From the sequence record MN106245.1: 64,000 nt of DNA; one strand, 5' to 3'. The stretch's first letter is position 1. Each line of letters opens with the position of its first letter. The translations under genes and the position numbers were made by a program. The stretch comes from Klebsiella phage EI. This document shows positions 24,452 to 25,742 of the stretch, piece after piece. Below the pieces are notes generated by a model, which saw only the letters and a program-made list of their open reading frames with translations, made no database searches and had not been told where the DNA came from.

Positions 24452-24763
24452 TTAATTTTCGGATAAAAGCTTTTTAGCTAAAGTGTAATCTCTAGAAGAG
24501 ACTTTGTATCTTTCAACCCCGTGCTCATTTATCCTAGAATTGCACATCATTAAAAAGGCATAAATCATCGGCCCTTCATAAATTTTAGCTAATAATTTGT
24601 GAGCTAAAAAGTGTTCTCTTCCTGTTAAATCGACTATGTTGGATTTGTCGTCAGAACCTCCCATAGACTTAGGGAGTATATGATGAGATTCTGTATACCC
24701 AGAAACTTCTTTTCTGAGTGAGGCCTTTGCCATTAAGGCCTCATAAGCTTTTCTATAGTCCAT
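24452..24763 (-). CDS. HNH homing endonuclease, catalytic domain
   Basis: ESHHILPKSMGGSDDKSNIVDLTGREHFLAH is an H-N-H motif. It overlaps the DAHP synthase stop by 11 nt. It ends at TAA just after an in-phase AAA-AAG, and the -1 frame continues into the ORF at 24195..24416. Confidence 0.7.
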   Translation of the reverse strand: MDYRKAYEALMAKASLRKEVSGYTESHHILPKSMGGSDDKSNIVDLTGREHFLAHKLLAKIYEGPMIYAFLMMCNSRINEHGVERYKVSSRDYTLAKKLLSEN

Positions 24764-25742
24764 TCAGATTACGGAGAACCATTTCAGTGGTTTCCCAGCC
24801 AATACACGGGTCAGTAATTGACACGCCATATTCAAGGTCTGTAGAAATCTTTTGATTACCTTGTTTAAGATTAGATTCTAACATAATTCCTCGAACGTTA
24901 GCCAATTCTGCTGCTTCAGCACAAACTGCAACCTGGTTCAAGAAAGAACCTTGGGCGTTAGCATGAGAGCAATCAACCATCAAGTATTGGTTAACGCCTG
25001 CCTTCTGTGCCTGGGCGATAGCATCAAAGACTGATTCTTTATCGTAGTTAGTTCCTTCGGAACCGCCACGCAGAACAATATGAGTGCTCTTGTTACCTGG
25101 TGCTGAGACGATACCGACTACACCGTTTTGGTCCATACCCATATAGTGGTGTGGGAACGCAGCCGATTGCATAGCGTCAGTAGCAACCTTAATAGAGCCA
25201 TTTGTCCCGTTCTTAAAACCGACAGTCATTGGCAGACCTGAAGCAATTTCACGATGAGTCTGTGATTCGGTAGTGCGAGCACCGATTGCAACCCAAGAGA
25301 AAATACCAGACAGATATTTGATAGTGAACGGATCAAGAACTTCTGTTGCCAGTGGTAAACCCATTCGCAAAAGCTTGCGACATAAGGTGCGAGCAATACC
25401 CAGCCCAGTATTAATTTCAAATGAACCATCTAAGAACGGGTCATTGATAAGACCTTTCCAACCGACAGTTGTACGAGGTTTTTCAAAATAAACACGCATA
25501 CAAAGCAGAAGATTAGGAAGTTCTTTTTGGAGTTCAGCCAGGCGCTCGCCATAATCAACTGCAGCAACTACGTCATGGATTGAACAAGGCCCTACTACAA
25601 CCAGACGGCGTTTATCGCGCCCAGTCATAATCTTATCGATTTCTTGGCGGTGTAAACTGACTTGATTTTGCAGCTCTGGAGAAATCCTACAACGACGCTC
25701 AAGTTCAGCCGGGCTTATCATTCTTTCAATTAAAGGTCTCAT
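24753..25742 (-). CDS. aroF: 3-deoxy-D-arabino-heptulosonate-7-phosphate (DAHP) synthase, class I-alpha (AroF/AroG-like)
   Basis: Near-collinear with E. coli AroF/AroG ([80 protein letters not shown]). Good AAGGAA RBS. Confidence 0.9.
   Translation of the reverse strand: [329 protein letters not shown]

Follow-up and report, generated by a model that had tools for sequence, protein, structure and literature searches.

Background

Several bacterial proteins of the U32 family have been characterized as carrying out hydroxylations that need no O2 but do require prephenate. RlhA, which makes 5-hydroxycytidine in rRNA (ho5C2501), needs aroB, aroD, aroE, aroA and aroC together with chorismate-mutase activity (PMC5727448). 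TrhP, which acts in the formation of ho5U34 in tRNA, is prephenate-dependent and has an O2-dependent counterpart, TrhO (PMC6599085), and prephenate is also the oxygen donor for UbiU/UbiV (PMC10990095). At the DNA level, the arabinosyl-5-hydroxycytosine pathway of phages such as RB69, HY126 and DLP3 comprises a 5hodCMP synthase, API, AfhE, AfhF and arabinosyltransferases; the ThyA-like 5hodCMP synthase requires O2 and flavin (PMC13326640). Neither PMC13326640 nor PMC6024577, which deal with this pathway, mentions DAHP synthase, chorismate mutase, prephenate or U32.

Feedback control of DAHP synthase has been mapped in the Escherichia coli isozymes, where P150L, S180F, F209A/S and Q151 changes in AroG, and P148, Q152 and delta-Ile11 changes in AroF, each give a feedback-resistant enzyme (PMC9529685, PMC5791370). 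Phage homologues are already named phospho-2-dehydro-3-deoxyheptonate aldolase in GenBank, and the copy in phage KLB31 has been called an auxiliary metabolic gene (PMC11845039). In the part of the literature that was searched, no functional study of any phage DAHP synthase was found. Here, we analyzed such a gene in a 64-kb stretch of Klebsiella phage EI DNA (hereafter the window).

Results

A type I-alpha DAHP synthase in the cd-pseT interval

The window encodes a 329-aa DAHP synthase in the cd-pseT interval, where the original prediction had placed it (Table 1). The gene order pseT, DAHP synthase, cd is common to Marfa, Biddle, HX01, CHI14 and Pm5461, and the orthologues (Marfa CPT_Marfa_230, HX01 gp250, CHI14 gp196, Pm5461_205 and the KLB31 copy) are the same gene at the same locus with 56–100% identity. 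The 7-kb region around the gene is 95–96% identical to that of relatives, and residues 1–327 of the protein are 100% identical to CPT_Marfa_230. What sets the window copy apart is a seg-like GIY-YIG gene upstream and a frameshifted HNH insertion at the 3' end, whose ATG overlaps the DAHP synthase stop codon so that the last residues of the enzyme are altered. Compared with the intact 179-aa gene of Biddle_MM4, this insertion shows 99.4% nucleotide identity and one indel.

Table 1. Coordinates of the DAHP synthase gene, its locus anchors and candidate expression signals in the window
Feature	Position	Strand	Basis
DAHP synthase gene (type I-alpha, AroF-like subfamily, phage clade, degenerate allosteric site)	24753..25742	-	PF00793, TIGR00034, residue mapping
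cd (dCMP deaminase), downstream locus anchor	23631..24191	-	
pseT (polynucleotide kinase/phosphatase), upstream locus anchor	27354..28256	-	
HNH homing-endonuclease insertion, frameshifted, between DAHP synthase gene and cd	24195..24763	-	
Shine-Dalgarno AAGGA, 5 nt before the DAHP synthase ATG	25748..25752	-	Read from sequence
UUCG-loop hairpin, overlapping the stop codon of the upstream DUF7320 ORF	25772..25787	-	Minimum-free-energy fold
Sigma-70/early-like promoter candidate TTTACA-17-TATGAT with TG, about 830 nt upstream of the DAHP synthase gene, the nearest such	26545..26573	-	Motif match, weak, inferential

The protein matched PF00793 over its full length (255.8 bits, cut-off 25.5, E=4e-76) and exceeded the cut-offs of the aroFGH model TIGR00034 (427.9 bits, cut-off 173.2) and of NF009395 (453.8 bits, cut-off 343). 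It scored under those of the AroG model NF006723 (365 bits, cut-off 568) and the AroH model NF009396 (380 bits, cut-off 463), and by these models is not an isozyme-level equivalent of AroG or AroH. Residues 8–326 are collinear with the E. coli AroF structure 6agm (E=3e-98), in keeping with the near-full-length collinearity first noticed; the fold family is that of AroF, AroG and AroH (6agm, 1kfl) over about 320 residues, with the beta6a/6b insertion region retained and two short deletions in C-terminal loops. All ten catalytic residues checked are kept in the window protein and invariant in every phage-clade sequence. Identical to those of the E. coli isozymes, they are Cys61, His268, Glu302 and Asp326 (AroG numbering), the metal ligands in the AroG structures, and Arg92, Lys97, Arg99, Arg165, Lys186 and Arg234, which bind PEP and E4P. 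Judged by its profile matches and intact catalytic core, the protein is a genuine DAHP synthase of type I-alpha (EC 2.5.1.54), as originally proposed, with the predicted reaction PEP + E4P to DAHP. The motifs quoted for that proposal are present, apart from one 13-residue motif that reads differently in the protein. The residue mapping is fixed by homologues of known structure that share about 49% identity with the protein.

Both expression signals noted earlier, a good ribosome-binding site and a UUCG hairpin (AAGGGC-UUCG-GCUCUU), were found in front of the gene, and a ribosome-binding site is annotated in Marfa at the position equivalent to the AAGGA of the window. Although the hairpin is in the minimum-free-energy fold, the folding energy of its region is no different from shuffles (z=-0.27), and no function can be claimed for it. 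Promoter-like matches were not in excess of shuffles (6 versus 8.9 ± 3.1), and the DAHP synthase strand between 24,700 and 28,500 showed no TATAAATA late motif and no MotA-box motif. Of the T4 early, middle and late promoter types, a single weak early-like site was the only match (Table 1).

The feedback site is dismantled across the phage clade

The AroG feedback site was scored as the N-terminal extension (the Asp6, Asp7, Ile10 region) together with Pro150, Gln151, Ser180 and Phe209. In the window protein, these four positions read I150, K151, P180 and Y209 (P150I, Q151K, S180P, F209Y in AroG numbering), and only 10 residues precede AroG P19 where 17–19 are expected, so that the aromatic-amino-acid feedback site is missing by this scoring. 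The phage clade (n=31) shares these features: I150, K/R151, P180 and Y209 occur in all members but P0021, which keeps P150, and only 8–12 residues precede P19, leaving the N-terminus 8–10 residues shorter than in AroF, AroG and AroH. Bacterial homologues inspected individually keep P150, Q151, S180 and F209, with at least 16–19 residues before P19, and 77 of 80 further homologues keep P150, Q/E151 and S180.

Loss of the allosteric site across the phage clade, as read from these alignments, appears new. We predict that the phage enzyme is insensitive to Phe, Tyr and Trp because its inhibitor pocket is dismantled. The positions changed in engineered feedback-resistant enzymes, which also include AroG D146N and, at the AroF positions above, P148L and Q152I, are naturally substituted or deleted in the phage clade, where several changes are combined and fixed clade-wide. 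The earlier suggestion that the gene deregulates aromatic flux had called for a look at the feedback-inhibitor residues, and their alteration in the window protein and throughout the clade is consistent with it.

An old resident of the locus under purifying selection

The gene had been described as host-type and markedly GC-rich against a backbone of about 35% GC, and neither description held. Its GC content is 44.4% in a window of 40.6% (z=+1.2, rank 8 of 71 ORFs), and its GC3 of 0.355 lies at the phage mean of 0.353 (z=0.02), versus 0.50–0.57 for E. coli aroF, aroG and aroH; among carriers, DAHP synthase GC3 follows the genome of each phage. Identity to E. coli AroF, AroG and AroH is only 45–49%. 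The best bacterial matches (52–54% identity) come from unrelated phyla, and phage matches range from 54 to 100%, all but two at 56% or more, placing the phage sequences nearer than any bacterial sequence. A compositional island was ruled out by the two z scores, and recent host capture by identity, GC3 and conserved synteny.

Within Marfavirus, dN/dS was 0.02–0.09 at dS of 0.15–0.36, showing that the gene is under purifying selection. At least five genera of T4-like phages have the gene at the cd-pseT position (Marfavirus, Mosigvirus, Kanagawavirus, Winklervirus and Bragavirus), and the phage clade at this locus spans at least nine lineages. The gene is a long-standing member of the cd-pseT block of early/middle genes, inherited vertically within one group of T4-like phages.

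DAHP synthase is found only in phages with a U32 protein

Of the 212 matching database records, about 198 are genuine T4-like phages. The gene is not a rarity, since some 200 phage records in GenBank already carry its annotation. It is absent from T4-type (Tequatrovirus) records, as expected of a gene described as lying outside the T4 gene set, and the 100 positive records listed by name include no T4, Tequatrovirus or Dhakavirus. The Acinetobacter matches are four low-identity contigs, of which the one inspected is bacterial DNA. Two candidate independent non-T4 phages, MT835613 (“Bacteriophage sp.”) and CAKLQF020000009 (“Acinetobacter phage MD-2021a”), were dropped as bacterial DNA, carrying PGK, GAPDH, MnmA and IscS in one and cobS/T/U in the other. 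A 261-kb IMG/VR contig with a partly altered DAHP synthase site was uninformative, with no U32 within 10 kb.

A protein matching Peptidase_U32 (Marfa_040, 43.6 bits; RB69p050, 42.2 bits; cut-off 22.4) was present in 221 phage records, and its gene adjoins that of the O2- and flavin-dependent 5-hydroxy-dCMP synthase. Records with U32 and with DAHP synthase numbered, respectively, 25 and 24 for Klebsiella, 7 and 7 for Proteus, 7 and 6 for Serratia, 4 and 4 for Enterobacter, 3 and 3 for Edwardsiella, and 137 and 125 for Escherichia. The two breakdowns by organism and host are thus nearly the same, a co-distribution judged on record counts and representative genomes, part of which shared ancestry could explain. 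All eight complete T4-like IMG/VR genomes with DAHP synthase also have U32. DAHP synthase was found only in phages with U32 in the 5-hydroxycytosine/arabinose cluster, an association that appears new, and U32 without DAHP synthase was found in RB69, Yersinia Tegunavirus phages and Pectobacterium PM2. The two genes are widely separated in T4-like genomes, by about 108 kb in Marfa. The U32 region of phage EI falls outside the window, and we infer the gene from its presence in the closest relatives, Marfa and Biddle_MM4, given the similarity of the 7-kb region. The arabinose genes are distributed differently: every checked lineage with DAHP synthase carries UDP-arabinose genes (AfhE-like, often API, which Marfa lacks), yet 57 Acinetobacter records have AfhE and API as well, some 40 additional Escherichia records with Dhakavirus-like names have AfhE, and in both of these groups the U32 tally is zero.

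In KLB31 and PWKp16, a chorismate mutase gene (PF01817, 38–39 bits, cut-off 27) sits between the U32 and 5hodCMP-synthase genes. A chorismate mutase gene (CM_2) was identified in 51 related records, F48-type Marfaviruses such as MY02 among them, and in those listed individually it adjoins a thymidylate-synthase-like gene, a U32 gene or both. The regions inspected contained no prephenate dehydratase, prephenate dehydrogenase or Trp-branch genes. No recognizable chorismate mutase was found in Marfa, Biddle_MM4 or Mosigvirus, and RB69p049, considered as a diverged one, had no similarity to the family. As first reported, the window holds no partner shikimate genes, and chorismate mutase, U32 and ThyA-like genes were all not found in its 64 kb. 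The further claim of a lone auxiliary gene holds within the window but not beyond it, where many relatives encode chorismate mutase in the DNA-modification cluster.

The phage U32 protein, labelled “sugar or heterocycle reductase” in RB69 (RB69p050), is very divergent. Alignments by hhalign to RlhA, TrhP and UbiU were weak (E=0.011, 0.04 and 0.11), and the U32 family assignment therefore rests on Pfam and published structure matches; a PDB sequence search with the protein gave no match. At 15–22% identity, the alignment places phage C192, C209 and C233 at or near the UbiU cysteines, with C209 the sole cysteine invariant in all seven sequences (one of four conserved U32 cysteine columns). The phage protein has extra cysteines, C203 and a C-terminal CX4CX3CX2C motif.

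Outside the T4-like phages, one metagenomic large-phage contig (L131, with a DnaE-type polymerase) carries a U32 gene, 54% identical in product to that of Marfa, and directly after it the gene for a type I-beta DAHP synthase core of 248 aa without regulatory domain. The enzyme scored 216–237 bits as a DAHP synthase versus 63 bits as a KDO8P synthase, and the same run includes the sugar-activation genes for a KpsF-like isomerase and a kinase/NTP-transferase. Both here and in the T4-like phages, a DAHP synthase without regulatory element is linked to a U32 homologue, although in L131 the subtype is I-beta rather than I-alpha and the genes are directly adjacent. Among seven non-T4 U32 neighborhoods, only this one has DAHP synthase within 5–8 kb, and no relatives of its type I-beta enzyme were found in IMG/VR.

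Discussion

We favor, by a modest balance of the sequence evidence, a role for the phage DAHP synthase as a deregulated entry valve that supplies prephenate for anaerobic cytosine hydroxylation. A feedback-blind enzyme would keep the shikimate pathway running during infection, even in aromatic-replete cells, where host AroF, AroG and AroH would be feedback-inhibited. Surplus chorismate would be converted to prephenate by the monofunctional phage chorismate mutase where present, and otherwise by host PheA/TyrA. Prephenate would then act as hydroxyl donor for the U32-family, putative Fe-S protein (RB69p050/Marfa_040 type), giving phages of facultative anaerobes an O2-independent path to 5-hydroxycytosine, later glycosylated in DNA.

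That the phage U32 protein uses prephenate, and on which substrate it acts, we propose by analogy with RlhA, TrhP and UbiU/UbiV. The shared features are a U32-family protein with clustered cysteines, the chemistry wanted (C5 hydroxylation of a pyrimidine), the proposed need for the shikimate pathway and chorismate-mutase activity, and an O2-dependent alternative, as with TrhO and TrhP. Besides the divergence of the U32 protein, the phage system would differ in acting stoichiometrically on a deoxynucleotide or DNA (about 69,000 cytosines per genome) and in having a phage-encoded enzyme for pathway entry and, in many lineages, a phage-encoded chorismate mutase. More tentatively, and just short of an even chance, DAHP synthase, the embedded chorismate mutase and U32 may together form a phage-encoded oxygen-independent 5-hydroxycytosine route, using one prephenate per cytosine as oxygen donor and complementing the O2-/flavin-dependent ThyA-like synthase when oxygen is lacking. 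The trio is not obligatory, DAHP synthase or chorismate mutase being missing in some lineages with U32.

The strongest competing explanation, though an unlikely one, is that the gene is a generic auxiliary metabolic gene that sustains the synthesis of Phe, Tyr and Trp for phage protein production once the host is shut off, the view taken in print for KLB31 (PMC11845039). The enzyme is intact and probably feedback-insensitive, and the gene lies among early/middle metabolic genes. However, only the U32-bearing subset of about 200 records has it, whereas T4, Tequatrovirus, Dhakavirus and Acinetobacter phages share the same amino-acid needs, and T4, Tequatrovirus and Dhakavirus are missing from the named records. 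The monofunctional chorismate mutase in the DNA-modification cluster points to prephenate, not amino acids, and a different DAHP synthase subtype adjoins U32 in an unrelated phage. DAHP synthase probably feeds DNA modification rather than amino-acid supply, since the gene occurs only in phages with a putative prephenate-type hydroxylase in the modification cluster. Of the original claim about aromatic precursor flux, deregulation fits the altered site, while the distribution speaks against a general amino-acid role and for the U32 link.

It is improbable that the gene serves another chorismate product, be it folate via pABA, quinones, a siderophore or the host UbiU/V route to anaerobic ubiquinone. 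Chorismate is a branch point, and T4-like phages use folates. UbiU/V, too, consume prephenate (PMC10990095). However, the phage adds a chorismate mutase rather than pABA, quinone or enterobactin genes, and lower folate demand is expected in carriers because a flavin enzyme has replaced their folate-dependent dCMP hydroxymethylase (PMC13326640).

Marginally less probable again is a carbon-flux valve, in which irreversible consumption of E4P and PEP would steer the non-oxidative pentose-phosphate pathway to ribulose-5-phosphate for DNA arabinose. This arabinose link was considered first, and the UDP-arabinose genes in all checked DAHP synthase lineages agree with it; it was demoted since AfhE and API are far more widespread than DAHP synthase. 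Acinetobacter and Dhakavirus-like phages have arabinose genes but apparently no phage DAHP synthase, the gene tracks U32 rather than AfhE or API, and the stoichiometry offers no obvious gain.

We give very little credence to a changed substrate, arabinose-5-phosphate or another phosphosugar in KDO8P-synthase-like chemistry. PF00793 also covers KDO8P synthases, and these phages make arabinose-5-phosphate (PMC13326640), but the aroFGH equivalog score (428 bits), the intact metal and E4P/PEP residues and the DAHP synthase-like scores of the L131 neighbor oppose it, and arabinose is the sole sugar reported on the DNA. Least credible is that a host gene of aroF/aroG type was captured recently, or that the gene is a passenger without selected function, which the plastic cd-pseT interval with homing endonucleases beside the gene might suggest but which the low identity to enterobacterial isozymes, phage-median GC3, a clade kept at one locus in at least nine lineages and the low dN/dS contradict.

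By itself, this is one more phage metabolic gene with an existing annotation; its interest lies in marking the visible end of a proposed pathway. As a natural, multiply substituted DAHP synthase that is predicted to be feedback-resistant, the enzyme may also be of use in metabolic engineering. The recently described arabinosyl-5-hydroxycytosine phages depend on a hydroxylase that needs O2, although most of them infect gut facultative anaerobes. That a predicted feedback-blind DAHP synthase, a lone chorismate mutase and U32 are distributed together provides a concrete candidate for anaerobic DNA modification in these phages, and gives RB69p050-type “peptidases” a candidate role. If the proposal is correct, prephenate-dependent hydroxylation, known for RNA and quinones, would reach DNA as well. 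Prephenate would for the first time serve as an oxygen donor for DNA, and these phages would be the first viruses to rewire aromatic biosynthesis in order to modify their own genomes.

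The DAHP synthase gene and its surroundings

The Pfam DAHP_synth_1 match spans the whole protein (E 4e-76), which also scored 428 bits against the NCBIfam aroFGH equivalog (cut-off 173) and 454 bits against the AroF-like subfamily model NF009395 (cut-off 343), and fell below both the AroG-specific and the AroH-specific NCBIfam models. Its closest solved structure is E. coli AroF 6agm (E 3e-98, residues 8–326), followed by Neisseria meningitidis and AroG structures. The motifs quoted in the original prediction are present, with one letter differing in a 13-residue stretch. An AAGGA sequence lies 5 nt ahead of the ATG, and a UUCG hairpin of six pairs overlaps the stop codon of the upstream ORF, in a region no more stably folded than its shuffled versions (z -0.27). 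A promoter search near the gene returned one weak early-like site and no late or MotA motifs, from which we infer only that it is probably transcribed with the early/middle pseT–cd block.

Features of the pseT–cd interval in the window
Feature	Coordinates	Strand	Description
cd	23631–24191		flanks the DAHP synthase gene
HNH homing endonuclease insert	24195–24763	-	separates the DAHP synthase gene from cd
DAHP synthase	25742–24753	-	329 aa
Two small ORFs	25786–26284	-	directly upstream of DAHP synthase; DUF7320, DUF7355 (89, 95 bits)
seg-like GIY-YIG endonuclease	26668–27262	-	two overlapping frames; PF01541 in N-terminal part; adjoins pseT
pseT	27354–28256		flanks the DAHP synthase gene

The gene had been read as a foreign, lone gene, markedly GC-rich in a backbone of ~35% GC, and this reading did not hold. 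The window measures 40.6% GC and the gene 44.4%, which ranks it 8th of 71 ORFs (z +1.2). At third codon positions the gene has a GC of 0.355, while the phage averages 0.353 and E. coli aroF/G/H have 0.50–0.57; orthologues in other phages each track the genome they lie in (Mosigvirus 0.29, a Proteus phage 0.18). The claimed lack of partners is correct for the window, where a search found no chorismate mutase gene or other shikimate partner, and fails for the lineage, since some relatives carry a chorismate mutase.

Two endonuclease genes were also seen in the interval. The HNH insert, whose ATG overlaps the DAHP synthase stop codon, is 99.4% identical in nucleotides to an intact 179-aa gene of Biddle_MM4, with a single indel splitting it into 103-aa and 73-aa ORFs, which may reflect a pseudogene or an error in sequencing. 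Among the genomes inspected, the enzyme ends in NLNGL with the insert (the window, Biddle_MM4, MY02) and in NLNNKG without it (Marfa, F48, pzk-kv8). The closest relatives cover just 81–89% of the surrounding 7-kb query and thus appear to lack the GIY-YIG segment. At the DUF7320 and DUF7355 positions, Marfa and Biddle_MM4 have same-sized ORFs annotated as hypothetical.

An old phage gene

The window comes from a Marfavirus-type Klebsiella phage: positions 22000–29000 are 96.3% identical to Biddle_MM4 and 95.4% to Marfa, and residues 1–327 of the enzyme are 100% identical to CPT_Marfa_230. By tblastn the gene occurs in 212 phage records, and in nearly all of them it already goes by the name phospho-2-dehydro-3-deoxyheptonate aldolase. 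The low-identity tail was rejected as not phage: the two records inspected there, 'Bacteriophage sp.' MT835613 and the 'Acinetobacter phage' contig CAKLQF020000009, are bacterial chromosome, one with PGK, GAPDH, MnmA, IscS and an integrase, the other with cobS, cobT and cobU, and they swell the number of DAHP synthases credited to phages. About 198 T4-like records are left. Marfavirus, Mosigvirus HX01, Winklervirus CHI14 and Bragavirus Pm5461 all conserve the arrangement pseT, small ORFs, DAHP synthase, 0–2 ORFs, cd, 31.1, 31, rIII; these genes were also found in Kanagawavirus PEi20/KLB31. The gene and its annotation are already known, and one paper counts the KLB31 copy as an auxiliary metabolic gene serving aromatic amino acids (PMC11845039); our literature search found no functional study of a phage DAHP synthase.

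Among 5.8 billion proteins, every match at 56% identity or above was phage or phage-like. The best bacterial matches reached 52–54% (Geomonas, Halomonas, assorted MAGs), and identity to E. coli AroF, AroG and AroH was 48.8%, 49.4% and 45.2%. Marfavirus DAHP synthases gave dN/dS of 0.02–0.09 at dS of 0.15–0.36. This is an old phage gene under selection.

Predicted loss of feedback inhibition

Catalytic and substrate positions C61, H268, E302, D326, R92, K97, R99, R165, K186 and R234 (AroG numbering) are invariant in the alignment. We then compared the allosteric site between 31 phage-clade sequences and the bacterial homologues examined. The phage clade has I at position 150 (one keeps P) against bacterial P, K at 151 (one R) against Q or E, P at 180 against S, and Y at 209 against F, with 8–12 residues ahead of the AroG P19 position against 16–19 or more; a few bacterial homologues differ at one allosteric position. 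AroG P150L, S180F, F209A/S and Q151 variants are desensitised, and of these residues S180 and Q151 touch the main chain of the inhibitor (PMC9529685); in AroF, changes at P148 and Q152 and deletion of Ile11 desensitise (PMC5791370, PMC10729320). In the E. coli enzymes single changes suffice, and the phage clade is naturally altered at the same positions, which strongly suggests that its enzyme is feedback-insensitive. As far as the literature could be searched, this clade-wide loss is apparently unreported.

About 70 other DAHP synthases from the IMG/VR viral collection have an inhibitor site like the bacterial ones. Dozens of giant-virus MAG contigs and several 180–260 kb viral contigs from that collection encode the normal regulated-type site (PQ / S180). 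On one 261-kb contig (L128) the site reads PN / P180, and the gene adjoins topoisomerase IB, thymidylate kinase and a Tad6-domain protein.

Co-distribution with a U32-family protein

The DAHP synthase genera resembled the list of phages in which arabosylated 5-hydroxycytosine was recently shown to take the place of cytosine, so we compared the two distributions, drawing on relatives' genomes for the modification genes, which in this phage would lie outside the window. Marfa and Biddle_MM4 carry an RB69-like 5-hydroxycytosine glycosylation cluster. Marfa_038 to RB69 p046:47 (glycosyltransferase) is 66–74% identical, Marfa_039 to p048 (5hodCMP synthase) 80%, Marfa_040 to p050 (U32 family) 89%, Marfa_042 to p051 (AfhF) 66% and Marfa_043 to p052:53 (AfhE) 43–44%. 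The best-conserved gene of the cluster is Marfa_040/RB69p050, which matches Peptidase_U32 at 43.6 and 42.2 bits (cut-off 22.4). Phage U32 proteins are 82–100% identical across enterobacterial T4-like genera and 77% in a Shewanella phage; in addition to the core cysteines, their C-terminal part has a CX4CX3CX2C motif, a possible ligand set for a second metal or Fe-S site.

U32 was found in 221 phage records, which by organism name mirror those of DAHP synthase (Escherichia 137 and 125, Klebsiella 25 and 24, Shigella 14 and 12, Proteus 7 and 7, Serratia 7 and 6, Enterobacter 4 and 4, Edwardsiella 3 and 3); tallies by host are likewise almost identical. These are record counts that ignore kinship. 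All eight complete T4-like IMG/VR genomes with DAHP synthase also encode U32. The reverse does not hold: Pectobacterium PM2, Yersinia Tegunavirus phages and the laboratory phage RB69, with no DAHP synthase between cd and pseT, have U32 without it.

The sugar genes are wider in distribution than DAHP synthase, with 367 records for AfhE and 276 for arabinose-5-phosphate isomerase. Both are present in 57 records of Acinetobacter phages, and AfhE in about 40 further Escherichia records of Dhakavirus-like appearance; the U32 tally includes no Acinetobacter and none of these Dhakavirus-like groups. The few Acinetobacter DAHP synthase matches are low-identity contigs, and the one inspected was bacterial. 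We found no arabinose-5-phosphate isomerase in the Marfa/Biddle_MM4 cluster (in Marfa, none by similarity search), and their AfhE, only 43–44% identical to the RB69 protein, shares about 80% identity with its Dhakavirus-like counterparts, so the sugar on Marfavirus DNA may differ or may depend on host KdsD/GutQ.

A monofunctional chorismate mutase of 79–81 aa (CM_2, 38–39 bits, cut-off 27) lies between the U32 and 5hodCMP synthase genes in KLB31 and the F48-type Marfavirus PWKp16. By tblastn it occurs in 51 records, whose hosts include Klebsiella (18), Serratia, Yersinia, Enterobacter, Edwardsiella, Erwinia, Providencia, Pectobacterium and Shewanella, plus Escherichia phage EcS1; among those listed, its neighbour is a thymidylate-synthase-like and/or U32 gene. 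Marfa and Biddle_MM4 lack it, with a 44-nt spacer at its position, and the Mosigvirus ORF there is unrelated. RB69 has a 79-aa ORF049 at the right position, in which we found no similarity to chorismate mutase. DAHP synthase, chorismate mutase and U32 are thus not always together.

U32 homologues beyond T4-like phages

Metagenomes yielded more than 100 homologues of the phage U32 at 47–59% identity. All seven neighbourhoods examined, on non-T4 contigs of up to 466 kb, were phage-like, and six were replication or DNA-modification neighbourhoods; the seventh, L134, was uninformative. Among the neighbours were a DnaE-type polymerase, ThyX, dCMP deaminase, thymidylate kinase, UDG-like and radical SAM proteins, glycosyltransferases (TAGT among them) and UDP-galactopyranose mutase. 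On three contigs (L135, L136, L137) U32 overlaps a preceding ORF of some 330 aa, unmatched in Pfam, which could encode a partner subunit.

In one of the seven (L131), a KpsF-like isomerase, a kinase/NTP-transferase and U32 are followed immediately by a 248-aa DAHP synthase of type I-beta (216–237 bits, against 63 as KDO8P synthase) with no regulatory domain. Two unregulated DAHP synthases of different subfamilies would have been recruited beside the same kind of U32, which shared ancestry would hardly explain.

A proposed role in cytosine hydroxylation

Characterised U32 enzymes perform prephenate-dependent hydroxylation. E. coli RlhA is required for 5-hydroxycytidine at 23S rRNA position 2501, a modification for which aroB, aroD, aroE, aroA, aroC and chorismate-mutase activity are necessary and which a chorismate-mutase-only PheA restores (PMC5727448). 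In ho5U formation TrhP depends on prephenate, and its partner TrhO on O2 (PMC6599085), and prephenate is the demonstrated oxygen donor of UbiU/V (PMC10990095). The phage U32 is by sequence comparison a distant member of this family. The phage ThyA-like 5hodCMP synthase requires O2 and flavin; the study reporting this labels RB69p050 a 'sugar or heterocycle reductase', brings up the RNA hydroxylation pathways only as unrelated to the ThyA-like enzyme, and nowhere uses the words U32, prephenate, chorismate or DAHP (PMC13326640).

We propose that the phage DAHP synthase would open the pathway whatever the levels of Phe, Tyr or Trp, that host enzymes would take DAHP to chorismate and a phage or host chorismate mutase would yield prephenate, and that U32, drawing on prephenate and needing no O2, would then hydroxylate cytosine at C5, either in a nucleotide or in DNA. 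This tie of DAHP synthase to a U32/chorismate mutase/5-hydroxycytosine module is apparently unreported, as far as the literature could be searched; like the allosteric-site loss, it is directly testable. A genome of ~169 kb at 40.6% GC holds ~69,000 cytosines. If the mechanism is true, a burst of 100 would consume several million prephenate molecules, a substantial draw on a pathway otherwise held back whenever the medium supplies aromatic amino acids.
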